Of a stretch of DNA of 64,000 nt, positions 1,375 through 59,498 are shown one piece after another. The stretch spans positions 20,157 through 84,156 of the forward strand of contig JAHILE010000040.1 in the NCBI GenBank assembly GCA_018897155.1, read 5' to 3'. The position numbers were made by a program, and so were the translations under genes. This DNA is from Nanobdellota archaeon (GTDB taxonomy: Archaea; EX4484-52; LFW-46). The notes below the pieces were generated by a model. It did not search any database and had not been told where the DNA came from. It worked only from the letters and a program-made list of their open reading frames with translations. Each line of letters starts with the position of its first letter. The first letter of the stretch is position 1.

Positions 1375-4300
1375 TTACTTCGCATTAAACCTTTCCAGCC
1401 CCAACTGCCTTGCTTTTTTTCCAAACAGGCTGTCAATATCTTTCTCAAGAAGCGAGAACTGCTGAAACAAATATGGCGATATCTTGTACTTTTCAATAAT
1501 ATGCTTTGTAGGCTCAACATATTTCCTTATCGCGCCTTCAGACACCGAAAGCATAAGCTTTCCTCCACAGTAGCACTTCCCGATTAAAGGTACTCTGCGG
1601 TACTTTGCATTACAGGTTGCGCACCGAACTTTCTGCTCTGAAAACGTGCGCAAATTCCCCTTTATGTCGCGAAGAAAATGCTTTGAAATAACCAACTCAG
1701 CCACAGAATCCTTATTCACGGCAACTATCTTCTCTGCAAGACCGAGTTGTGCAGTAACTTTGTCCTTCATGCTGCCAAGCTCCACATACTTTGTCTTAAT
1801 CGGCGCATCATTAACGTCGGCTGTGCCATGAGTGAACTTTATATGAAAGACCTCGGAAGTCTTTATTACATCTGCAACAAGGCGCGGCTTTTTTGTAAGT
1901 TCTGATATTGTTTTATAGTTCATGGTGTCTTCATAGAATTCAAGCGGGTATTCTGAAGAGATATCAACCCGCCATGCCTCATCATCCACTTCCTCAGGAT
2001 TAAGCTTGCTTGTAAGGACGAGTGGCGCATCCATTGTCCTCCCCCCGCGCGTGTCCGGCAAAAACTTACGAGAGAAATTAAGCAATGCATCCATCAAAAG
2101 CATTATTGAGTCTTCGTCGCCATCACAGTTTCCTGCAACAATGCCCGAGCAAATAAGGTTGTGATGCATATCAACAGTTACATCGTAAACATATTTTTCC
2201 CTGTTTTCAATAAACTTCTTGCCCACTATCTTGTCAACAAACGAATCCCCTTCAAGAACTGCTCGCGCAGTGCCTTTCTTTGTGAGCCACTGCTCCAAAA
2301 GTGCTTTGGCGCGAACTTGCTTATCTTCGACAAACCCTATTGTCTCAATATATTTTCTGGCGTCATCACCATATAATCTTATTTTATACGAATGCAAAAA
2401 TTTGGGCTTTCCGTAGAATTTTAAGATTAATTCGCTTTTTATTTCGCGGTTTTCTTCATAAATTGAATGTTTGATGCCCAAAAACATCAAAATTACTGAA
2501 ACAGAATCAATGAGCCACTTATTAACCGAGGTAACATTGACTTCAAGAGTGCTTTGAATGGCGCAGGAGCCATCGCCTGAAAAATATCCTCTTAAAAGTG
2601 CGGCAAGTTTTTCTTTTGGCAAAGAATAAACAAAATTTGGAACTCGTTTGCTTCGCGCGTCCTTTCCAACTTCGAGATAATTAAATAATTCATAAACAAA
2701 CCGCGAGCATATAGTAACTGCATTTCCGGACGTGTTTGGCGTCAAGCCAAAAACATCCTTTATTTTCGTTTCAAGATACGCTTTCACCCGCGCCTTAGTG
2801 GCAGTTATTGAAATCTGATGCGTATTTTTTTGATTTTTCTTTGTATATCCTTCGGCAAGATAAAAGCCCAGAATGCATAAAAAATCCTCGTTAAGAAGAA
2901 TCTCGGGCTTTATAGATATAGAATCCCTTTTGCTTCCAAGAAAATATTTTTTGTTTTCGAATAGATTCTGGCTAAAATGCTCAACAATATCAAGCGGATA
3001 AAACTTTCGATAAACATAATTAGTGAGTGTTTTATAATTCATCCCAAGATTAGCGCTGATTTGCGACAAAATTGTTCCGTTGCCAAAAATCTGCTCTTCG
3101 GTTCTTACCATAACATTTCTGTTATTAACGACATCAAGCAAATCTATTTTCTCAACATCAGATGTAATCGGGTTTTCTATTTGCCACGGTATTAGGACTT
3201 CGGTCGCATCTTCGGCGCGTATTTTTTCACCGCATTTGTTCAATAACAGATGGTCTGGGGTAACAACTATTTTTCTTCCGCACTTAGTTTTAATCTCTAA
3301 CAGGATTTGTGGAGCGGGATGTTTTGAAACATGCGTCATATCCGAAAGCTCGAATTTTTTGGTGAGTTTATTAAAAGCAAATGTTTTCAATCCAGCAATC
3401 GTTTTATATTCTGTTCCAAAAGCGTCTGTTTCAACCCCATCCGTAAGATTCGTCTCCACTAATTCGCGAATAGTTGATAATCTAAACTCTTTTCCATCAT
3501 GTACAATAATTTTTTCGTTGCCAAAAAAACAATTCCTTCTTTTGCCAGCATGCCAGAATGGATGCGCATAACATACTTTTGAACGAGTAAAGCCTACAAT
3601 TCTGCCCACTATGCCTGCAGATGTGTGTGGAGCAAGCCCTACAACCAGCTGACCCACCAAATCCTCTCTTGAGTTCATATTATAATACGGCGGAAGGCTG
3701 TAAAACTTTACAAGAAGCTCGTCGATAAACCTGCTGACATTCAGCATGTAATTTACTGATGAGAACTCTTCATTGTCGGATATGACAATATCCTGTACGC
3801 TCAGCTCAAGAATCTGATTCTCATTTTCAAGCGGTCTGCCCAAATAATCATTCACATAGCCTATGGATTTCAACTTTGCAACAGAAACGCCAAGCTCAGA
3901 TGGCTTGAAGTGTGTCATTGAGATATCAGAAGCATCATATCGTGTAGTGCCGTCCTTATTCACGTAAAGCTCGTATTTTGTACGAAGAACGCCTTTTTCA
4001 AGATATTCCATGCTTCTCTCAGGGCCTGAAACTCCCCTAACGCCTTTGAATAGCTTTGGCAATTGAACAACTGAAATGTTTTTGAACGCCTCATCAAGTA
4101 GCTCTTTCAATTTAATAGTCATCTTACGATATTTTTTTGTAGGCTGGTTGCAGTGCATAGTTGCTTCAACAATGGAATTACATGACTGACAAATATTTCT
4201 CGGAGTTCCGCGCACATTGCATTTTGGGCACATAGAAAATACATTCTCAGCACCGCATGAAGTGCATTTAAAGACCGGAAATTCTGCAGTTACTTTTCCG

Positions 4301-7132: not shown

Positions 7133-7318
7133 AGCCCTGGGCGCGAATTTCACCGGTTCTGGGCAGACATGCGACCTCAACGAAGTTGAAGTCGCTCCTT
7201 CTTTCTTTTCCACCCGGACTTGTCTATTCTTTCTTGAAAAGAAAGAAAAGAAACCATGTTTTGAACGCACGACCTTTACCTTACCAAGGTAACGCTCCAC
7301 CAGCTGAGCTACCAGGGC
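7133..7318 (-). tRNA. tRNA-Thr(GGU) with ~115-nt intron in the T-loop region
   Basis: Minus-strand read: GCCCTGG-TA-GCTC AGCTGGTG GAGC-G-TTACC TTGGTAA GGTAA-AGGTC-GTGCG TTCAA[...]-CGCGC-CCAGGGC. The acceptor, D, anticodon and T stems all pair. The T-loop is interrupted after TTCAAA by an insert with long CT/GA-rich complementary arms. Confidence 0.6.
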
Positions 7319-8289: not shown

Positions 8290-8447
8290 GCAGGGGTAGC
8301 CAAGCGGTCAACGGCGGTGGACTCAAAAATATTGAGTTATAGACCAACACAGGCAATAACTTTAGGAAATCCACTCTCTTAGTGAGTTCGAGGGTTCAAA
8401 ACAGTTTTCAGATAAATGAAAAAACTGTGAAAATCCCTTCTCCTGCA
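8290..8447 (+). tRNA. tRNA-Leu(CAA), long variable arm, two introns (anticodon loop and T-loop)
   Basis: GCAGGGG-TA-GCC..GGC D arm, anticodon stem GTGGA/TCCAC and loop CTCAAA|intron(~41 nt)|A. A long variable arm 'TCTCTTAGTGAGTTC' follows. The T-stem GAGGG...CCCTT is interrupted after TTCAAAA by ~33 nt. The acceptor 3' strand is CTCCTGC. Confidence 0.55.
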
Positions 8448-40923: not shown

Positions 40924-41101
40924 GCCTCGGTAGCTCAGCTCGGTGGAGCGCGTGACTTGTACGTTAATACAAACGCGAGACTCGTACGCTCGTGATATGT
41001 CTTCAAAGCAAAGATATCACGCGGTCGAGGGTTCAAAAACAGGATTTTGTTTAAAGTGGATAACATCTCAGCATTTCCTGTGGAACTTCCCTCCCGAGGC
41101 T
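40924..41101 (+). tRNA. tRNA-Thr(UGU) with two introns (anticodon loop and T-loop)
   Basis: GCCTCGG-TA-GCTC AGCTCGGTG GAGC. The anticodon stem is CGTGA/TCACG with loop CTTGTA|intron(~55 nt)|A. The T-stem GAGGG...CCCTC is interrupted after TTCAAAA by ~50 nt. The acceptor 3' strand CCGAGGC is perfectly complementary. Confidence 0.55.
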
Positions 41102-41412
41102 TAAACTATTTTTTAAGCTTTTTTTGTAATTGTAAAGCACATTTGAATAATAAAATTACTTGAAAACCTGAAGAATTTACTTAATTTTTCATTATTTTTT
41201 ATAAAATCGTGGGCAGAATACCCACAAATTTATTTGTGGGATGAATGCCGTGCCTCTTTTCAGTTTTTGTGCGAGAGGCAGAAACAGTAAAAACATTTAA
41301 TAGAGTTTTCTGTTCATTCTGGCTCATTAGAGCAATTGGGACTAAGTATCAAGGGGACAATTTTAATTCGTAGGGGAGGGAGCGACCTGTTTTGTTCTTT
41401 TACAAAAGCAAA

Positions 41413-43593
41413 TTATAGTTTTAAGAATTTCCAGTCCGATAAGTTATTCTCATCATAATTGTATCTTTCATTATCGTTATATCTACAACTCTCATCTTTA
41501 AAGATAATAATCCCGCCAAATAGCTTTTTATTATGCTTTTGATTTTGTGTTTTAATGTATTTGCTTAGTGCTTCTGCTTTTTCTTTAGCGACTTTTGCGG
41601 TTATTCCACTTTTAGTATCAAAAATACCTATTCTTCCATCATCAAGCATAATTACAAAATCAACATAAAATCCTCTTTCCACACCTGCATCGTCTTTATA
41701 TTTTACTGCAAGGTATTTTTTATCTGATTCTCCGTTTTTGAACCACCATTTAACAGAATTTTTTGGATTTTCAAGTAGTTTTATGAAATCTTTTTCTGGC
41801 ACACTTTCGGCAGAAATAAAATAAGGTTTCATAATTGCTTTTTTATGTGGCAATTCTTTGTATTTGCTGTTATAAGTTATTAGTTTGGGAACATTCCAGA
41901 CAAGATGCTCTGTTTCTCTTTGTTCTGGCAATCCTCCAACAATCTTGAGTTTGTATTCCTCTTTTGCTTCATTAATGCAATCAGTAAATAACTGATTATT
42001 TTCTTCTCCTAAAATTATCTTTTGAGCAAAAGTTTCATCTTCGATTTTTATTACTTTTTCAAAAAACTTATAGAGTGCTGTTCTTATTCTTCCTTGTGAA
42101 TCAGCAGGAGCAAAAGGAGTACAGCTTCCTCTTACAAATAAGTCAAATCTATGTTGTAATTCAACAGCACTTAACTTAAATTGCATTTCTCCTTTATGTT
42201 CTACTGTTTGAACTTTATCTAAAACCAATATTTTTCCATCAACCATTATTTTAGTTACGAGAGATTTTGGCTTTAGATTTATTTTCTTTGCAAGTTCGCT
42301 TTTTTGTGCAATTTCTAAGAATAATTTTGTAAATTCTCCAGAAAGTCTTGTCTTTTCTCTTTGTCTTATGAGATAGATTGAATTAAGATCAATATTGCTA
42401 TATAATTCTTCTCTTCTTTTTGCTTCGTAAATTGTGATATAATCTTTAGCGACTTCTTCAGTTATGTTAATGTCAGCAAGATTTGTGAATACATAACCTT
42501 TATTCAATTCTTCAGTTTCATAATGCTTAAACTCTGGCATTCTCATTATTCTGCCTACTGTCTGAATGGTAAAGTCCATACTTTGCATATCTCTGAACAT
42601 TACCAGAATGTATGCTCTTGGACAATCCCAACCTAATGCTATAGCTTGTTTGAAAATAAGAACTTGAACATCGTTATCAGGCATTTCAATATTCTCAAGG
42701 TTGGTTTTTTCTTCTGATAAATAAATCCCTAATTTTCCGTTTTCTGTTGTTATTTTGAATTTATCTCTTAAAATTCCCGTAATCTGTTCTTGCCTGTCAA
42801 TAACTCCTGTCTTTTTATCAGGAAGCTGAATTAAAATTAATGGATTGATATCGGATTTTTCTTTTTCTAATAGTTTAAGCATTTCCTGTCTTTTCTTTAA
42901 AGCACATTCAATAACTAATTCATCAGGAGATTTGTCAGAAACTTTTCCTTTGTCTAATTCTGGATTTATGGCAATTTCTTTCTTTATCATTCCCTCTTTT
43001 CTTACATCTTCAAATTCTACAAGAACATTATAAAAAGAATGAATGTGCGGAGTAGCTGAAACTTCCAAAATTACATCGGGATCAATATCATTTATTAAAT
43101 TTCTTGAAGTTTCTGTTTTAGCAGTAAAGTGACTTTCGTCTATAATTAAAACTATTTTTGTGCCGTCTTCTTTCGTGTTTTCAATAATTTTAGATAAATT
43201 TCTTTCCTGTTCATTTTCTCTAATATAAACATTATCTGTTTTGTTTATGCTTTCCCAATTCAAGAACAAAATTTCATCTGGCTCAATTTTATTACCTACT
43301 AAATCTTCAAAAAATTTACACTCTATCGCTCTTGTCGTAGAATAATATTTATCTAATTTTTCTTTACTTTGTGTATGTAATTGTCTTGGAGCTGTCCAAA
43401 TAAAAGCGATTTGCTTTCCATCGTCTCTTCTATCAACAAGTCTTTTAATAAATTCGGCCACCATTAAAGTTTTACCAGAGCCTGTCGGAGATTTAAAAAC
43501 TAAAGTTTCTCTTGAATCTCGATTTAGTAATTCGTTAATCTGTTCTTTTAGTTTTAAAATTGCTTTCTCTTGATAATCTTTAATTTCAATCAT
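41413..43593 (-). CDS. Type III restriction enzyme Res subunit (SF2 helicase + PD-(D/E)xK nuclease)
   Basis: Walker A 'SPTGSGKT', DEAH-like 'LIIDESH' and a C-terminal 'VDFVIMLDDGRIGIFDTK' nuclease motif. Confidence 0.75.
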   Translation of the reverse strand: MIEIKDYQEKAILKLKEQINELLNRDSRETLVFKSPTGSGKTLMVAEFIKRLVDRRDDGKQIAFIWTAPRQLHTQSKEKLDKYYSTTRAIECKFFEDLVGNKIEPDEILFLNWESINKTDNVYIRENEQERNLSKIIENTKEDGTKIVLIIDESHFTAKTETSRNLINDIDPDVILEVSATPHIHSFYNVLVEFEDVRKEGMIKKEIAINPELDKGKVSDKSPDELVIECALKKRQEMLKLLEKEKSDINPLILIQLPDKKTGVIDRQEQITGILRDKFKITTENGKLGIYLSEEKTNLENIEMPDNDVQVLIFKQAIALGWDCPRAYILVMFRDMQSMDFTIQTVGRIMRMPEFKHYETEELNKGYVFTNLADINITEEVAKDYITIYEAKRREELYSNIDLNSIYLIRQREKTRLSGEFTKLFLEIAQKSELAKKINLKPKSLVTKIMVDGKILVLDKVQTVEHKGEMQFKLSAVELQHRFDLFVRGSCTPFAPADSQGRIRTALYKFFEKVIKIEDETFAQKIILGEENNQLFTDCINEAKEEYKLKIVGGLPEQRETEHLVWNVPKLITYNSKYKELPHKKAIMKPYFISAESVPEKDFIKLLENPKNSVKWWFKNGESDKKYLAVKYKDDAGVERGFYVDFVIMLDDGRIGIFDTKSGITAKVAKEKAEALSKYIKTQNQKHNKKLFGGIIIFKDESCRYNDNERYNYDENNLSDWKFLKL

Positions 43594-45337
43594 TCTTGAA
43601 AACCTTCCTATAAACTTTTAAGATTGTTTCTGGAATAGGACATAAAGTAACTTTGTTTTTAATGGTTTTAAATTCCTTTGTCGGCACAGAATCATCATGC
43701 GAGAATACATATACATGGATTTTTCCGTTTATTTTTTCTGCTTCTTTGACAAATTCATCAATATACTCGTCATCAAATACTATTCCTAAATGCAGTTTAT
43801 CATTTTTGAAAATCTTGAATTTCTTTGTGTCTTTGACTTTTTCAAAAGTATTTTCCTTAATGCAAAGCATTTCTGTGCAGTTATCAACCAGTTTACGCTT
43901 GTTTTTATCTGTTTGCTCTGCTTCAACAAAATCTGTTTTATAATATTTGAGATTACCGCCAAGACCTTCGATTTTTTCGTTAGATGCGTTAGTATATCCT
44001 TTAATTATTTTTTGTATTCTTGGATAACATACATCTGAGCAAATATTGCCTTCATTATTAGTGCATAAAATAAATGATAAATCTTGATTGAGTTCATCGT
44101 TTAGTTCCATTACTGCATGGCCTGTAGTTCCTGAACCTGCCATGAAATCTAAGACAACGCCTTTTTCTGGACAAGAATATTTAATTAGTTCTTTAAGTAA
44201 TTTCTTAGGTTTTGGATAATTAAATAATTGTTTACCAAATATATTTCTAAGCTCCTTTGTCGCAGCTTGATTTAAATCAGATTGCATTATTTTTATTCCA
44301 TTTTCGTCTTCTTCAGAATCAATGGCGACTTTTTTTATAACCGATGCTTCTATCCATGTTGATAAAGGTTTAAAGTTAGATTTTAACTCGTTTGCAAACC
44401 GTTTATATTGTGGTGTTCCGTTCTCTTTTTTTGGAAAGATTACTTTACCTGCTTTAATCTCATTTAACATTCTAACTCTCTCAAAACGCCAAACCCTGCT
44501 TGGATTAGCAGGATAAACCTTTCCTGTTTTAGGGTCGGTTATATCATAATATAAATTAGGTCTTTCATCTTTTGTTTTACCGCAAGTAAGATCTCCTGCT
44601 GTCCAAGGGCCCCTAGGGTCGTTATTAGGATTCTTATAGTTGCTTAAATCTTTCTCTATACCAAAAAGAGAGGCTTTTTCTGATTTTTTATAGCAAAAAA
44701 TATATTCATGGTCAGTTGATACTAAATTTTTTGGATCATTTGCTCCACTTCTTCTTTTCCAAACAAAATTAGCTACAAAATTGGTCTCTCCAAATATATC
44801 CTCACAGAGTAGTTTTAATTGTGCATTTTCATTATCATCAATCGAGATAAAAATAATTCCTGTATCTTTTAGTAGATTTTTAGCAAGAGCTAAACGCTTA
44901 CTCATAAAAGAAAGCCATTTACTATGTCTATATCCATCTTCTTTATCTACAAATTTATCATTATACTTAAAATCCTTATTTCCTGTGTTATACGGTGGAT
45001 CTATATAGATAACATCCACAGAATTTTTATGTGTGAAATTAAGAACAGCAAGTGAATGGTAATTATCTCCTTCAATTAAAAGATTAACTGGCTTGTCTTT
45101 ATCTGAATTTATCTCTTTATCTTTTACTTCTGCTAAAACTGGAAACTTATCTTTACTTTCTGGGCTAAATTCTTCTTTAGTCTTTTCGCCTTCCCAGTTA
45201 ATGAATAAGTCAAAATCTTCTTTAGTTTTCTCTCGTTCCCAAACTAAACCGTAAGTTTTTTGCTTCTTTAAAGCCAAAATTTCTCTTATGAGCTCCTCTT
45301 TTGACCATTCAATGTAATTTCTTTTTCCATTAACCAT
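43586..45337 (-). CDS. Type III restriction-modification Mod subunit (N6-adenine DNA methyltransferase, beta class)
   Basis: Motif IV 'IYIDPPYN' precedes motif I 'LDFMAGSGTTGHA'. The gene overlaps res by 8 nt. Confidence 0.8.
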   Translation of the reverse strand: MVNGKRNYIEWSKEELIREILALKKQKTYGLVWEREKTKEDFDLFINWEGEKTKEEFSPESKDKFPVLAEVKDKEINSDKDKPVNLLIEGDNYHSLAVLNFTHKNSVDVIYIDPPYNTGNKDFKYNDKFVDKEDGYRHSKWLSFMSKRLALAKNLLKDTGIIFISIDDNENAQLKLLCEDIFGETNFVANFVWKRRSGANDPKNLVSTDHEYIFCYKKSEKASLFGIEKDLSNYKNPNNDPRGPWTAGDLTCGKTKDERPNLYYDITDPKTGKVYPANPSRVWRFERVRMLNEIKAGKVIFPKKENGTPQYKRFANELKSNFKPLSTWIEASVIKKVAIDSEEDENGIKIMQSDLNQAATKELRNIFGKQLFNYPKPKKLLKELIKYSCPEKGVVLDFMAGSGTTGHAVMELNDELNQDLSFILCTNNEGNICSDVCYPRIQKIIKGYTNASNEKIEGLGGNLKYYKTDFVEAEQTDKNKRKLVDNCTEMLCIKENTFEKVKDTKKFKIFKNDKLHLGIVFDDEYIDEFVKEAEKINGKIHVYVFSHDDSVPTKEFKTIKNKVTLCPIPETILKVYRKVFKND

Positions 45338-45391
45338 TTATTTGTTCCCCTTTATTCTCAATATAACCTATGATGTTTATTAATGTTTTTC

Positions 45392-46030
45392 TTATTTAAC
45401 CATTGTGTTGCATTCTTCTAATCTTTCACAAAGCAAACTGGCAAAACTCAGATATTTTAATGCCCTGTTTTTATCTTTTTGGATAATATTCTCATGTCCC
45501 TTTGGGTTTCTTATACCCATTATTGCACCTGCATAAAGATGCATAAATCCTTCTTGTTCATCTTTATCTGATTGGGATACAAGTCCATTCATTTTTAGTA
45601 GAGGGCTATTTACACTAAAAGCAGTTAGCATAAGACTTTTACCATCCAAGTCTTTGCGACAAGATTTCTCTTTAACAAGATTATTTATTTTCTTAAAAGC
45701 CTCAAAAATTGCTTGAGCATAATGTTTATCATAAAATAATTTTTTACTGACGGATTCTATTTCAGGATGGATATTTAATAATCTAAAATATTCCACTTCT
45801 GTTTTTTTCCCTTCATAGAAATCCGCATTATTTTTTTGAATCCAACCTTTATCCTCTAAACGTAAGAATTTTTTACAGGATTTAAGTTGCATTAAAATAT
45901 TTGAGCAGGTTATTTGATATTCGTCAAAAAGTTTGTTTTTTACGTCGCTTGGCCTTCTATGTTCTAGAAAGTATCCATTTTTCCATAATTCGCTTATTGC
46001 AGTATTTATTTTCATGTTAATCAGATACAT
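45392..46030 (-). CDS. hypothetical protein in RM island
   Basis: A 212-aa ORF with no catalytic motif recognised. It lies on the same strand immediately upstream of mod. Confidence 0.35.
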   Translation of the reverse strand: MYLINMKINTAISELWKNGYFLEHRRPSDVKNKLFDEYQITCSNILMQLKSCKKFLRLEDKGWIQKNNADFYEGKKTEVEYFRLLNIHPEIESVSKKLFYDKHYAQAIFEAFKKINNLVKEKSCRKDLDGKSLMLTAFSVNSPLLKMNGLVSQSDKDEQEGFMHLYAGAIMGIRNPKGHENIIQKDKNRALKYLSFASLLCERLEECNTMVK

Positions 46031-46394
46031 AAGCCCATTTCTTTAATTTTGTCCCATTATTTAGCGTCTTGGTCTTTTTAAGAGAGCCATTCCTAACAAT
46101 ATTCCTTAGTGGGAGCGTAATGTCTGATGCTTTAAAATGGTAGTCTTTTTCTTTTAACTTATCCAACATTTCTTTTACAGTTCTAGGTTGATTAAAAAAG
46201 TTTCCTAAAGAAAGAATCTTCTCAGTAGTGCTTCCTTTTCTGTACCAGTTAGCTAATTTCTCACTTTTCACTTCTTTGGATTTAGACGCTGGCTCTTTGC
46301 GTTCTAAAAGGGTAATTCTTCTTTCATGGTCATCAAGAATTGCCTTAAACTCTTTTTCTGTTATCATCTTTATCATCTCCGAACATAAACCCAC
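46017..46394 (-). CDS. small winged-helix-like protein, paralog 1
   Basis: Its C-terminal half aligns with ORF 46373..46741 (ILxxGFFNxPxxxxE...KKWxYV). Confidence 0.4.
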   Translation of the reverse strand: MGLCSEMIKMITEKEFKAILDDHERRITLLERKEPASKSKEVKSEKLANWYRKGSTTEKILSLGNFFNQPRTVKEMLDKLKEKDYHFKASDITLPLRNIVRNGSLKKTKTLNNGTKLKKWAYVSD

Positions 46395-46741
46395 TTTTTC
46401 TCTTGTTTAATTCTTCTTAATTCCTTACCTTTTACCAATCCTAGAACTATTGCAGATAAGGTGGTAATTGGGATAAATGTTCCTTGTTCTTCAAGCCCTT
46501 GTTTCAATTCAGCCAGACTTTTTGGCTTGTTAAAAAATCCTTCTGCAAGAATCTTTCTGATAGTATCTGTTATAGTTGGTTTTGAATTAGCCTTAGCTTT
46601 GATAAATTTTTTAAATTCTTTTGCAGGAGTTTCAGGAGTTTTTTCATCTTTATATAGATTCATAACTTTTGAAATCTCTTCTGGAGTACCCTCTATAACA
46701 ATTTTAGTCCCATCTTTTGTTTCAATATTTGCTTTAGTCAT
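46373..46741 (-). CDS. small winged-helix-like protein, paralog 2
   Basis: 'TITDTIRKILAEGFFNKPKSLAELKQGLEE...KKWVYVRR'. Confidence 0.4.
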   Translation of the reverse strand: MTKANIETKDGTKIVIEGTPEEISKVMNLYKDEKTPETPAKEFKKFIKAKANSKPTITDTIRKILAEGFFNKPKSLAELKQGLEEQGTFIPITTLSAIVLGLVKGKELRRIKQEKKWVYVRR

Positions 46742-46799
46742 TTTTAATCGCCCTTAATAACATAATAGTGTAATAATGCAATAGTATTTAAATCTTTCG

Positions 46800-47600
46800 C
46801 CTATTTGTCCAGTGGTTCGTAGTTTCGTCGCCCCCTCCCCTGTTCGTCGTTTTTCGTTTAAATTTGTCCCCCTTCTTGAGATTTCACTTTGTGAAATCTC
46901 CTATTGTTAGCTGTCCTTTCAATTCTGTAGGGCATCCATAAATATCATATTCAAAGACATCTTTGCCTTGCTGTTCTTGAATGTATCTCTTAACTTGCTC
47001 TTGTGAAACGTGTCCAGCAGAGCCACAGTAATAACCTCTTGCCCAGAGGTTATCAAAACCTTTGCCGAAGTGCTGTTTATATCCAAGATACCTTAATTCA
47101 GGAAAGCATCGCCTTAATTGTATTGAAGTATTGCCTTTCAGCTTATGAATTATCTTGAAAGGAGTTACTGTCGGCTTTGCACCTACGAATAGATGCAAGT
47201 GGTCAGGCATAATCTCGAATGCCAGATTGCTAATGCTCATTTCTTGGCATTGCCCTTCAATGATTGCTTTCAGAACTTCAACAACCTTTCCAGTCAATAC
47301 TGGCTTCCTGTATTTTGGAATCCAAATAATGTGGTAATTGATGTTGTATTTGCAATGGTGAGATGTCCTCACAGTTGCGATTTTACTCTCGATTTTGTGC
47401 ACTTCTGGATTGAAGTGCGGATATAGTTTTTTAGTCATAGCGACCACCTCATGCTGAAGGTGGTTGCTTGTATCGTTAGGGGGTTCTCGTTTAGCGAACC
47501 ATACATTAAACTTTTAGCGTAGCGACCTCTGCAAGAGGGAAAAGTTTAAGTTAAATGGTTTGCGTGAGAAACCCCCAGCTTTAGCTGGATTTATTTTGGG
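46800..47600 (-). mobile_element. IS200-like insertion (TnpA only) with subterminal hairpins
   Basis: A perfect hairpin GAGATTTCAC-TTT-GTGAAATCTC (46878-46900) overlaps the tnpA stop. Imperfect palindromes GGGGGTTCTC/GAGAAACCCCC lie at 47474-47582. No tnpB was found, and the boundaries are approximate. Confidence 0.45.
46884..47447 (-). CDS. tnpA: IS200/IS605-family transposase TnpA (HUH Y1)
   Basis: 'YHIIWIPKYRKPVL', 'DHLHLFV' (HuH), 'LKGNTSIQLRRCFPEL' and 'WARGYYCGSAGHVSQEQVKRYIQEQ'. Confidence 0.85.
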   Translation of the reverse strand: MVAMTKKLYPHFNPEVHKIESKIATVRTSHHCKYNINYHIIWIPKYRKPVLTGKVVEVLKAIIEGQCQEMSISNLAFEIMPDHLHLFVGAKPTVTPFKIIHKLKGNTSIQLRRCFPELRYLGYKQHFGKGFDNLWARGYYCGSAGHVSQEQVKRYIQEQQGKDVFEYDIYGCPTELKGQLTIGDFTK

Positions 47601-47632
47601 AGTATGTTATTTCTAAAAATAAATATTATTTA

Positions 47633-47764
47633 TCTCCCACCCCATCATTTCCCTTAGAGATGTTTTTTGATTTTTCAATATGTTGCTATTGTTATAACAA
47701 TGTTATATTCGGTTCTATATAGGTATAGTATATAGTTCCATACGAAATGATGGGGTGGGGGTGT
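47633..47764. promoter_or_regulatory. predicted replication origin core: 16-bp perfect inverted ORB-like repeats flanking ~90-bp AT-rich DUE, upstream of orc1/cdc6
   Basis: 'GGGAAATGATGGGGTGGG' (antisense at 47633-47653) and 'GAAATGATGGGGTGGGGGTG' (47745-47764) face each other across AT-rich DNA. The GGAAATGA...GGGGT core resembles archaeal ORB elements. Confidence 0.5.
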
Positions 47765-47922: not shown

Positions 47923-49143
47923 TTGATGCAAATGGCTCAAACAACAATTCAGCAAATATTCTCTAATTATATGACAAAGCAACCGCTTTTTTTAGATAAA
48001 CGAGCACTTACTACATCATACACACCGGAAAATGTTCCGCATAGGGAAGAACAGATATCACAACTTGCATCGATTGTCACTCCTGTTCTGAAAAAAGAGA
48101 GGCCTTCAAATGTTTTTATATACGGTCCAACAGGAAGTGGCAAAACACTTGTTACGCAATATGTTGCATCAGAGCTAAAAACGGCGGCAAAAAACAACAA
48201 CATACCATTTCATATTGTTTATGTGAATTGTAAAATGAAACGCGTGGCTGATACAGAGTACCGCCTCCTTGCGCACCTTGCAAATCTGCTCGGAAAAACC
48301 GTACCGCCCACAGGCTTGCCCACAGATCAGGTATATAAGATATTTTACAGCGCGCTTGATGAGCGTGAAGGCGTGGTTATATTTATCATTGACGAAATAG
48401 ACGCGCTTATTAAAAAAGTCGGTGACGAACTGCTTTACAATTTTACAAGAATGAATCAAGATATAAAAAATGTAAAGGTGTCTATAATCGGTATTTCAAA
48501 CGACATTGCATTTACAGAAAATCTTGATGCGCGTGTCCGATCATCCCTTTCAGAAGAGGAACTTCTCTTTCCACCATATAACGCACTTCAGCTTCAAAGA
48601 ATACTTTCAGAGCGCGCAAGCATAGCATTCAATAAATCAAAAGTATCCGATGGCGTGATTTCAAAATGTGCGGCTCTTGCAGCCCAGGAACATGGCGATG
48701 CAAGGCGCGCATTGGATTTATTGAGGGTTGCAGGAGAGCTTGCAGAGCGTGAAAACGCGCCAATGGTTGAGGAAAAGCATGTTGATGCCGCAGAATCAAA
48801 GGTTGACCTGGACCGGGTAATAGAAACAGTAAAAATGCAGCCCAAACAGTCAAAAGCAATACTTTACAGCATAATTTATCTTACGCGCGGTGATGAAAAG
48901 ACCTGCCTTTCAGGCGATGTTTATGAGGAATATGTGCGCATCACAAAGGTCCTTGGCCTTAAGCCCCTGACACAGAGGCGTGTTTCTGACATAATTTCAG
49001 AGCTTGACATAATGGGTGTAATAACGTCAAAAGTCATAAGCAAGGGGAGGTATGGGAGAATGCGTGATATTGGCCTTGCTATATCGACGGAGATTTACCA
49101 AAAACTGCTGAATTTTTTAAAGAGCGATTTTGGATTTGATTAA
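47923..49143 (+). CDS. orc1: Orc1/Cdc6 replication initiator
   Basis: An AAA+ domain ('IYGPTGSGKT', 'IIDEIDAL') plus a C-terminal winged helix. Confidence 0.85.
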   Translation: MMQMAQTTIQQIFSNYMTKQPLFLDKRALTTSYTPENVPHREEQISQLASIVTPVLKKERPSNVFIYGPTGSGKTLVTQYVASELKTAAKNNNIPFHIVYVNCKMKRVADTEYRLLAHLANLLGKTVPPTGLPTDQVYKIFYSALDEREGVVIFIIDEIDALIKKVGDELLYNFTRMNQDIKNVKVSIIGISNDIAFTENLDARVRSSLSEEELLFPPYNALQLQRILSERASIAFNKSKVSDGVISKCAALAAQEHGDARRALDLLRVAGELAERENAPMVEEKHVDAAESKVDLDRVIETVKMQPKQSKAILYSIIYLTRGDEKTCLSGDVYEEYVRITKVLGLKPLTQRRVSDIISELDIMGVITSKVISKGRYGRMRDIGLAISTEIYQKLLNFLKSDFGFD

Positions 49144-59221: not shown

Positions 59222-59251
59222 TCGGCGGTTAGAAATTGGAGTGGCCCCGTT

Positions 59252-59498
59252 GAGATTTATTCATGCCGAATCAGCAGCGGACAGGTGACTGCACCGAAGG
59301 TGCAATCGCCCTAAGCGCCGACCGATTACGCGGCCGTTGAACTCAAGACCTCCGGCTCACTAAAACGCTAAGCGCAAGTAAGCACTTGGATTTGGGCAGG
59401 ACAAACTGTTCGCCCAAACGTCATATAAGACCGGCGCTCCTTCTGGCGGAATTTCGCGAATTTTTGGCAAAACCCGAAACCAGCTGAGCTACGGGACC
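59252..59498 (-). tRNA. multi-intron tRNA (~247 nt), anticodon UAU (Ile) if canonically spliced; introns in D-loop, anticodon loop and T-loop
   Basis: Minus-strand read: GGTCCCG-TA-GCTC AGCTGGT[39 nt]G GAGC-G-CCGGT CTTATA[~65 nt]A GCCGG-AGGTC-TTGAG TTCAA[~85 nt]CTCAA-CGGGGCC-A. All four stems pair once the three inserts are removed. Confidence 0.4.

Follow-up and report, generated by a model that had tools for sequence, protein, structure and literature searches.

The locus considered here lies in a 64,000-nucleotide stretch of contig JAHILE010000040.1 (the window, to which all coordinates refer unless another genome is named), whose host is an uncultured DPANN ("Nanoarchaeota") archaeon. It consists of a twice-interrupted tRNA-Thr(UGU) gene at 40924-41101, a low-GC block with the genes of a Type III restriction-modification (R-M) system, a candidate replication origin, and the initiator gene orc1/cdc6 (Table 1). 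Two questions arise from this arrangement: whether the 3' end of the tRNA gene was the site at which a genomic island integrated, as a reading made from the sequence alone (the sequence-only reading) had proposed, and whether the interrupted gene is functional. We conclude that the tRNA gene and the R-M insertion are, with good probability, two independent neighbours, and that the cassette entered a permissive spacer without attachment to the tRNA. For the tRNA-Thr(UGU) gene we argue strongly that it is functional, with two introns predicted to be removed by protein enzymes.

The insertion between tRNA-Thr(UGU) and the replication origin

We compared the locus with related genomes recovered in two ways. 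Homologs of the 142-amino-acid protein encoded next to the tRNA gene (68-75% identical) led to the sister genomes L087/L088 and L089, and a metagenome scan with the exon-1/intron junction, which gave two loci only, added a third relative, L091. When GTDB species representatives were scanned with the neighbouring CDC48 protein, the relatives recovered came only from DPANN archaea, which gave the best matches, and methanogens. Their identity did not exceed 64%, and they had neither a homolog of the tRNA gene nor synteny. In NCBI, proteins encoded near the locus carry the label "Nanoarchaeota archaeon". In L087, L089, and L091, the tRNA-Thr gene is followed by a spacer of ~100 nt, the origin structure, and cdc6, with no res or mod gene and no insertion sequence (IS); the low-GC block of the window is thus an insertion. 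In a BLAST comparison of L089 with the window, homology was lost at 41123 and regained at 47609, and therefore ~6.5 kb (about 41124-47612) was inserted in the spacer between the tRNA gene and the origin. The same genomes bear on the foreign origin that had been assigned to the block, as none of the three harbors res/mod genes of native composition at this tRNA. Related genomes without the island had been expected to define attL and attR; the empty site was indeed found, but attachment sequences derived from the tRNA were not.

The base composition agrees with an insertion of foreign DNA. Overall, the block has a GC content of 0.31 compared to 0.41 for its surroundings. The GC content is ~0.43 over the tRNA gene, falls to 0.27-0.35 from 41100 to ~46800, and returns to ~0.40 over 46800-47500. 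In 1-kb windows within the cassette (41344 onward) it is 0.29-0.33, compared to a mean of 0.414 (standard deviation 0.030) outside the insertion, and the GC content at third codon positions (GC3) of the five cassette genes is 0.19-0.33, compared to 0.36-0.42 in the flanking host genes. These values confirm the drop in composition 3' of the tRNA that had been noticed from the letters alone. The accompanying recognition of foreign Type III res and mod genes is likewise upheld, by this low GC3 and by the PADLOC profile matches in Table 1.

All genes of the insertion are encoded on the minus strand, with mod upstream of res and overlapping it by 8 nt. Mod matches the solved structures of the Helicobacter pylori Mod protein (6k0w_B, 2e-67) and of EcoP15I Mod (4zcf_A, 1e-42); a sequence search of Res against PDB gave no match to any solved structure. 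In an alignment of 15 Res homologs, the helicase motifs GSGKT and DESH and the C-terminal residues D645...D659-T-K661 are invariant. By this motif alone, the C-terminal part of Res is nuclease-like, of the PD-(D/E)xK type. Since both protein families are present and the Res motifs are invariant, the Type III R-M system looks intact. Exact look-ups of Mod, of the Ymh protein encoded next to it, and of a TTG-start version of Cdc6 returned no record, probably owing to start codons or assemblies that differ.

The mod-res cassette recurs in other genomes, in unrelated surroundings. Relatives of Res are 94-75% identical in uncultured archaea and 55-63% identical in other DPANN lineages, Asgard archaea, Nitrososphaera, and one bacterium. 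Two of these relatives were compared in their genomic context, those of L093 and of L097, a metagenome-assembled genome (MAG) of the Woesearchaeota, in which Res is 93% and 88% identical, respectively, at the amino acid level. Both mod-res loci are unrelated to tRNA-Thr or cdc6, and no tRNA gene was found near either of them by ARAGORN, a program that would not detect tRNAs whose introns are non-canonical. In L097, the cassette has a GC content of 0.34, compared to ~0.50 for its host. At the nucleotide level, homology to these relatives covers 41344-43962 and 44752-45326; it begins in the comparison with L093 at 41344 and so reaches 69 nt beyond the res stop codon. A search of viral contigs with Res gave only relatives at 53% and 33% identity and hence no evidence for a viral vector.

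A pair of imperfect inverted repeats, each made of an outer box (form GGGGACAAWTTTAA) and a G-box (form GGGGARGGGGCGAC), bounds the cassette in the window. L093-L096 have this inverted pair on either side of their cassettes, at about 3500-3560 and 7660-7725 in L093, and a decayed form is present in L097. Across the 1.5 Mb of DNA that was fetched, every G-box belongs to an inverted pair at the flanks of such a cassette. We take the repeats as real because they recur in L093-L096. The TrmB genes on either side of the L093 cassette were considered as long repeats and rejected, being only 34% identical.

The centre of mod (43962-44752) has no nucleotide homology to the L093 and L097 cassettes, which are elsewhere 83-89% identical to that of the window. 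Such a pattern would be expected if the target-recognition domain had been exchanged, which would give Mod another methylation specificity.

The strains closest to that of the window differ at this very place, and their contigs all break within the region. L082 matches the window at 100% identity as far as its own end at 41642, and L084 is identical from 46701 on. L081 and L083 are identical through 41253, with mismatches accumulating from 41254; their alignments are lost near 41285 and near 41340, respectively, and L081 continues with 155 nt of unrelated AT-rich DNA. Because L081 and L083 diverge after 41253 while L082 and L084 match, the locus is polymorphic within the species, and the cassette content differs between strains that are >99.5% identical.

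On its origin side, the insertion ends in an IS200/IS605-family element. Its transposase, TnpA, matched Pfam Y1_Tnp (2e-34) and NCBIfam transpos_IS200 (131 bits against a cutoff of 55), and it has many close relatives (97-86% identity). At the nucleotide level, homology to copies elsewhere spans exactly 46884-47612, with a left-end boundary that is common to four contexts and that coincides, at 47612, with the resumed empty-site homology at 47609. Beyond the tnpA stop codon, the copies differ between subgroups and homology ends; the right end of the element was therefore left undefined.

Several further observations were made on this family. Within its left end, ~100 nt (47479-47576) are highly structured, with GGGGGTTCTCGTTTAGCGAACCAT ... 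ATGGTTTGCGTGAGAAACCCCC around nested hairpins, and a separate hairpin at 47440-47467 covers the ribosome-binding site of tnpA; all of these are conserved in other copies. In a subgroup with a P0130-type TnpA (L100-L105, from ENA and JGI contigs), the same HNH-endonuclease gene lies downstream of tnpA on the opposite strand, in two upstream contexts, and three independent assemblies of this type end exactly 541 nt past the tnpA stop codon. These data suggest that the P0130-type subgroup is an IS200/IS605 unit with a passenger gene. Two candidates were rejected. A hairpin with TCAA at the tnpA stop codon was considered for the right end but is not conserved in L098 or L100, and a 379-amino-acid open reading frame (ORF) after tnpA in L098, considered as TnpB, has no Pfam match.

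From these data we propose that a lineage-specific composite insertion of ~6.5 kb entered a short ancestral spacer between the tRNA gene and the origin with orc1/cdc6. It would consist of a ~5.5-kb low-GC cassette with imperfect inverted repeats of ~50 nt and an adjoining 0.73-kb IS200/IS605 element. The repeat-bounded cassette would travel horizontally among DPANN archaea as a transposon-like R-M unit, and its content at this locus would vary between near-identical strains. The adjacency of tRNA and island would then reflect insertion into a permissive spacer. Some of the data weigh against this proposal. The insertion edge near the tRNA (~41124) falls within an AT-rich stretch and can be placed only to within tens of bases; the insertion point could be very close to the tRNA end. 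By itself, the alignment of the inverted repeats scores only ~1.7 standard deviations above shuffled sequences, and no target-site duplication was seen at the cassette flanks by inspection, with no clean empty site for the cassette alone.

The same ~6.5 kb (about 41124-47612) might instead be a single IS200/IS605 transposon, with its left end, tnpA, the R-M genes as cargo, and a right end near 41124-41343. Such an element would move as single-stranded DNA via the Y1 transposase and insert by a short target sequence beside the origin. The near coincidence of its left-end boundary (47612) with the resumption of empty-site homology (47609) would fit a single element, as would the orientation of all island genes, which is that of tnpA. 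The absence of direct repeats here suits IS200/IS605 elements, which lack terminal inverted repeats and do not duplicate their target; the hexamer AAATGA, found where the left end of other copies begins, recurs at the L089 empty site; and the P0130-type copies, with an HNH gene after tnpA and three assemblies that break 541 nt past it, are likewise in its favour. However, homology among the copies stops exactly at the tnpA stop codon, and on the tRNA side no similarity was found of 41101-41420 to the regions downstream of tnpA in other copies, or of 41101-41412 to the structured left end. Moreover, tnpA has a host-like GC content of 0.39 compared to 0.30 for the cargo, and in L093 and L097 the cassette occurs with its own inverted repeats and without any tnpA. 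We therefore regard a single transposon as unlikely and prefer the composite insertion.

Integration of a genomic island into the tRNA-Thr 3' end by a site-specific integrase, leaving attL and attR, is much less probable still, and it was this mode of insertion that the sequence-only reading had inferred from the position of the block. Its foreign composition, its absence from relatives, and a start ~25-50 nt from the tRNA 3' end relative to the sister species are what such an event would produce. Among the six ORFs of at least 60 amino acids taken as genes in 41124-47612, however, searches with Pfam and NCBIfam found no tyrosine or serine recombinase and no integrase domain; the only mobility gene of the insertion is the Y1 IS200 transposase. 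Near the right boundary, there is no second copy of any k-mer (10 nt or longer) taken from 40924-41110. A repeat search gave only AT-rich chance matches, and a likeness of 47562-47600 to the tRNA 3' end, obtained by forced global alignment, was judged an artefact. The exons and introns of the tRNA gene are unchanged relative to its island-free orthologs. Strains with different cassettes share the first 153 nt after the tRNA (to 41253) without change, and the start of the transferable cassette, at 41344, is 243 nt from the tRNA; elsewhere, homologous cassettes have no ARAGORN-detectable tRNA nearby. Without an integrase or a duplication of attachment sites, with the tRNA unaltered, an invariant segment of 153 nt after it, and the cassette 243 nt away, insertion at the tRNA 3' end is not supported. 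The mobility features that are present, namely inverted repeats and an IS200/IS605 transposase, use no tRNA attachment sites. Adjacency to a tRNA gene combined with low GC content is thus insufficient for inferring integrase-mediated insertion; the mobile unit at this locus is a repeat-bounded R-M cassette by an IS200 element and a replication origin.

An ancestral block lost by deletion from the sister lineages, rather than one acquired horizontally, is hardly credible: the presence/absence pattern alone cannot be polarised without a rooted phylogeny, but three separate lineages lack the block with equally tight spacing between tRNA and origin, GC3 is ~0.2 compared to ~0.4 in the host, Res is 88-93% identical in other genomes compared to 68-75% for core neighbours of the closest relatives, and the cassette is found at unrelated loci elsewhere.

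The intron-containing tRNA-Thr(UGU) gene

Standard searches do not report the tRNA-Thr(UGU) gene in its unspliced form, for which there was no call by ARAGORN and none by Rfam at gathering or permissive thresholds. Its cloverleaf can be read by eye. The acceptor stem has 7 bp (GCCTCGG/CCGAGGC) and is followed by the D-arm, the anticodon stem (CGTGA/TCACG), and the T-stem (GAGGG/CCCTC), with the anticodon loop (CTTGTA...A) and the T-loop (TTCAAA...T) interrupted. The sequence also has the identity elements G1-C72, C2-G71, and U73. When both introns were removed, the remaining 74-nt sequence was called tRNA-Thr(tgt) by ARAGORN. When intron 2 alone was deleted, the intron mode of the program independently placed a 54-nt intron at the canonical anticodon-loop site.

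The splice junctions were assessed with a scan for bulge-helix-bulge (BHB) motifs over all possible junction pairs in the 177-nt gene. The geometry sought combined an outer and an inner helix with a central helix of 4 bp and a bulge of 3 nt in which the cut follows the second base. The two proposed junctions ranked first and second among all candidate pairs, that of intron 2 being the top one. For intron 1, the central helix has 3 of 4 bp, the outer helix 6-7 bp, and the inner helix 3 bp; for intron 2, the corresponding values are 3 of 4, 5, and 6 bp. The spliced call and the two top-ranking junctions together confirm the double-intron gene that had been read from the sequence. Its anticodon-loop intron, given as ~55 nt between CTTGTA and A, is 54 nt long at position 37/38. 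The T-loop intron had its length right (~50 nt, here 50 nt) but its junction placed one base too far, after TTCAAAA: the gene reads TTCAAA-intron-T, and the mature loop TTCAAAT.

Comparison with the sister genomes also supports a functional gene. The tRNA exons are 100% identical in the window, L087, L089, and L091, whereas the adjoining 142-amino-acid protein is merely 68-75% identical. Intron 1 is present in all four lineages, with lengths of 54 (window), 56, 123, and 60 nt. Intron 2 lies at the same site wherever it occurs and is 50 nt long in the window, 123 nt in L087, and 170 nt in L089; it is absent from L091, where the uninterrupted T-arm reads GAGGGTTCAAATCCCTC, which is exactly the predicted ligation product. 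The central BHB helices in L087 and L089 have all 4 of 4 pairs, formed by TTCA/TGAA at intron 2 and by CTTG/TGAG at intron 1. The inner helix of intron 2 is fully compensated across the lineages (ACAGGA/TCCTGT, CGGTTTTT/AGAAACCG, and CAGT/ACTG). Upstream of the gene, the TATA-like box TTTATAAA is found as the same motif at the same distance in the orthologous loci of L087, L089, and L091.

Invariant exons, fixed intron positions, freely varying intron sequences, and a retained BHB geometry indicate a functional spliced gene, rather than a pseudogene. Each intron would fold in a BHB built on the adjoining stem, which is the anticodon stem for 37/38 and the T-stem for 59/60. Both bulges would be cleaved by the archaeal splicing endonuclease, after which an RNA ligase would seal the exons to give a tRNA body of 73 nt. 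There are points that weigh against this reading: both central helices in the window have 3 of 4 pairs, each with a purine-purine mismatch beside the 5' bulge, and intron 1 has a weak inner helix, of 1-3 bp, in each of the four lineages. The gene thus satisfies the relaxed form of the BHB, not the strict one with two 3-nt bulges and a 4-bp helix, and cleavage would require an enzyme that tolerates relaxed motifs. The same mismatches, and the lack of a call from standard tools, could be cited for a pseudogene inactivated by two insertions, which we consider extremely improbable: the exons are perfectly kept in four lineages, the inserts stay at fixed positions but vary in both sequence and length, the BHB geometry is preserved with compensatory changes, the TATA-like box and the T-run are conserved, and three other tRNA genes of the window carry T-loop inserts, two of them confirmed at 59/60.

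The interior of intron 1 was also inspected. A core of 25 nt (40975-40999, CGCGAGACTCGTACGCTCGTGATAT) is nearly invariant in the four lineages, the rest of the intron being variable. Part of this core, GCGAGACTCGTAC, resembles the 5' strand of the exon anticodon arm, GCGTGACTTGTAC, and CGTGATAT can base-pair with ATATCACG over the 3' splice site. The core may represent an alternative fold or the remnant of a duplication. A C/D-box sRNA within intron 1 was rejected by inspection, as only L087 and L089 have a CUGA box, which the window and L091 lack.

Features of the locus and other disrupted tRNA genes

The coordinates of the locus are collected in Table 1. On the tRNA side of the cassette, terminator-like hairpins lie at 41207-41227. 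On the far side, a perfect 16-nt inverted repeat, CCCACCCCATCATTTC at 47636-47651 and GAAATGATGGGGTGGG at 47744-47759, encloses an AT-rich stretch of 92 nt. The structure is conserved beside cdc6 in L087, L089, and L091 and looks like a replication origin with origin-recognition boxes (ORBs).

Table 1. Features from the tRNA-Thr(UGU) promoter region to orc1/cdc6, with positions in the window.
Feature	Position	Strand	Description and basis
TATA-box-like element TTTATAAA	40888..40895	+	~30 nt upstream of tRNA-Thr(UGU); read from sequence; putative promoter function
tRNA-Thr(UGU) exon 1	40924..40961	+	Acceptor 5' strand, D-arm, anticodon stem 5' strand, loop CTTGTA; ARAGORN after splicing
tRNA-Thr(UGU) intron 1	40962..41015	+	54 nt, canonical 37/38, relaxed BHB; ARAGORN intron mode and BHB scan
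tRNA-Thr(UGU) exon 2	41016..41037	+	A38, anticodon stem 3' strand, variable loop, T-stem 5' strand, TTCAAA; ARAGORN and ortholog alignment
tRNA-Thr(UGU) intron 2	41038..41087	+	50 nt, non-canonical 59/60, T-loop; top-ranked BHB candidate
tRNA-Thr(UGU) exon 3	41088..41101	+	T60, T-stem 3' strand, acceptor 3' strand (to 41100), discriminator T/U73 = 41101
Two T-runs (T6, T7)	41109..41125	+	Likely archaeal tRNA terminator; read from sequence; putative function
AT-rich segment, 220 nt	41124..41343	.	tRNA-proximal part of insertion; contains hairpins; absent from sister species
Left inverted repeat of mod-res cassette	41344..41386	.	Outer box AAGGGGACAATTTTAA, G-box AGGGGAGGGAGCGAC
res, Type III restriction subunit, 726 aa	41413..43593	-	Pfam ResIII 2e-21; PADLOC REase_III 6e-17; DEAD and Helicase_C domains
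mod, Type III N6-adenine methyltransferase, 583 aa	43586..45337	-	PADLOC MTase_III 1e-92
Hypoth_Ymh (TIGR02391) HEPN-like protein, 212 aa	45392..46030	-	Pfam 5e-34; NCBIfam TIGR02391; PADLOC Aga_HEPN and PD-Lambda-3_B
Two small ORFs, 125 aa and 122 aa	46017..46741	-	No significant family match; orientation as mod-res
Right inverted repeat of cassette	46827..46879	.	G-box GTCGCCCCCTCCCCT, outer box TTAAATTTGTCCCCCTTCTTGA
IS200/IS605-family element	46880..47612	-	tnpA 46884-47438; structured left end 47448-47612
oriC candidate	47636..47759	.	ORB-like perfect 16-nt inverted repeat around AT-rich stretch; putative function
orc1/cdc6 replication initiator	47926..49143	+	Pfam Cdc6_lid, Cdc6_C, AAA; exact product on record

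Three further tRNA genes of the window are disrupted. A tRNA-Thr(GGU) at 7134-7318 (minus strand) has one intron of 113 nt at 59/60 and is called Thr(ggt) by ARAGORN once the intron is removed. Over its first 61 nt, this intron matches intron 2 of the L087 Thr(UGU) gene, taken as the reverse complement, at ~92% identity, with a score of 93 compared to a shuffle maximum of 30. The occurrence of the same palindromic element in T-loop introns of different tRNAs, in opposite orientations, suggests intron mobility at the DNA level, in the manner of a miniature inverted-repeat transposable element (MITE). At 8290-8446 (plus strand), a type-II tRNA with a long variable arm has two introns, one of 33 nt at 59/60 with a perfect hBHBh' motif (the BHB with its outer and inner helices; 4 of 4 central pairs and a 7-bp inner helix) and a second of ~41 nt in the anticodon loop. 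It was read as Leu(CAA), supported by A73 at 8447, with Ser(cga) as an alternative placement by ARAGORN. At 59243-59498 (minus strand), a 256-nt gene yields tRNA-Ile(UAU) after removal of a D-loop insert, a 66-nt intron at 37/38, and a T-loop insert; the D-loop junctions are not fixed. An isoleucine tRNA with a UAU anticodon is uncommon in archaea.

A broader scheme that would tie these observations together appears rather unlikely to us. The G-box repeats would define an undescribed family of non-autonomous cargo transposons that carry Type III R-M and other defence genes from one DPANN archaeon to another, perhaps with the help of, or together with, the adjoining IS200/IS605 Y1 transposase; the spacer between tRNA and origin would be a hotspot for them; and the 59/60 introns of this lineage would be palindromic MITE-like elements that move between tRNA genes and occur in either orientation.

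The disrupted genes have a consequence for annotation. Standard finders miss tRNA-Thr(UGU) and at least three further disrupted tRNA genes within a 64-kb window, and DPANN genomes of this type will look tRNA-deficient without intron-aware, BHB-based prediction. The identical exons of the four lineages, with introns of 0-170 nt at a single T-loop site, also provide a natural series of intron gain, loss, and turnover.

Relation to known systems

Multiple and non-canonical tRNA introns in archaea are best known from the Thermoproteales and are also found in DPANN lineages. The tRNA-Thr(UGU) gene resembles these BHB-intron tRNA genes in having introns at 37/38 and 59/60, a BHB on the adjoining stem, and a structure missed by standard finders. 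It differs from the best-known cases in several respects. All four disrupted genes of the window have their non-canonical introns in the T-loop; the site is 59/60 in three of them and either 58/59 or 59/60 in the fourth. The T-loop introns end in GTGAAAA/T or GTGAAAT/T (the slash marks the junction) in the Leu and Thr(GGU) genes of the window and in the L087 and L089 orthologs, and in GTGGAACT/T in intron 2 of the gene studied here. The BHBs of this gene are relaxed, with 3 of 4 central pairs, and the host is a moderate-GC DPANN archaeon, in contrast to the hyperthermophilic crenarchaea of the best-known cases. Position 59/60 is among the listed non-canonical tRNA intron sites (PMC4090602), and raised tRNA gene disruption has been reported in Pacearchaeota, Woesearchaeota, and other DPANN lineages, several of which have a loop-bearing splicing endonuclease EndA (PMC5829648). 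Given this known intron site and the heavy disruption of tRNA genes reported in DPANN archaea, the gene is a further case of a known kind.

Elements that target tRNA genes include the P4-type islands of bacteria and the SSV- or pNOB8-type integrative elements of archaea. The insertion shares with such islands its foreign composition, its position 3' of a tRNA gene, and its absence from relatives. Unlike them, it has no integrase and no tRNA-derived direct repeats as attachment sites, and 153-243 nt separate the tRNA from its variable DNA. One described unit, in which R-M genes are combined with an integrase, is integrated in a tRNA gene (PMC2853133).

The R-M system itself follows the EcoP15I type, with mod upstream of and overlapping res, a Mod protein homologous to those of EcoP15I and H. 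pylori, and a Res protein with superfamily 2 (SF2) helicase motifs and a C-terminal D...D-x-K; it departs from that type in its short Res (726 amino acids), the family of which is found mainly in uncultured archaea. The neighbouring element is like other IS200/IS605 members in its Y1 transposase, its structured left end, a hairpin at the ribosome-binding site, and the lack of terminal inverted repeats and target duplication. In contrast to typical members, its relatives appear to carry differing DNA after tnpA, which is an HNH gene or a 379-amino-acid ORF in other copies and the R-M cassette here.

The cassette as a whole compares best with the bacterial R-M units with long inverted repeats described by Furuta, Abe and Kobayashi in 2010, some of which are flanked by 8-bp target duplications (PMC2853133). 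As in those transposon-like units, there is no transposase of its own, the imperfect inverted repeats measure tens of bases, the locus differs from genome to genome, an empty site exists in relatives, and the target-recognition region of the methyltransferase is variable. Here, by comparison, the hosts are DPANN archaea and no target duplication was identified, and the cassette adds a HEPN/Ymh gene and abuts an IS200/IS605 element and a replication origin. The tRNA gene and the island thus both fit known kinds, and they overturn nothing in the current understanding of either.

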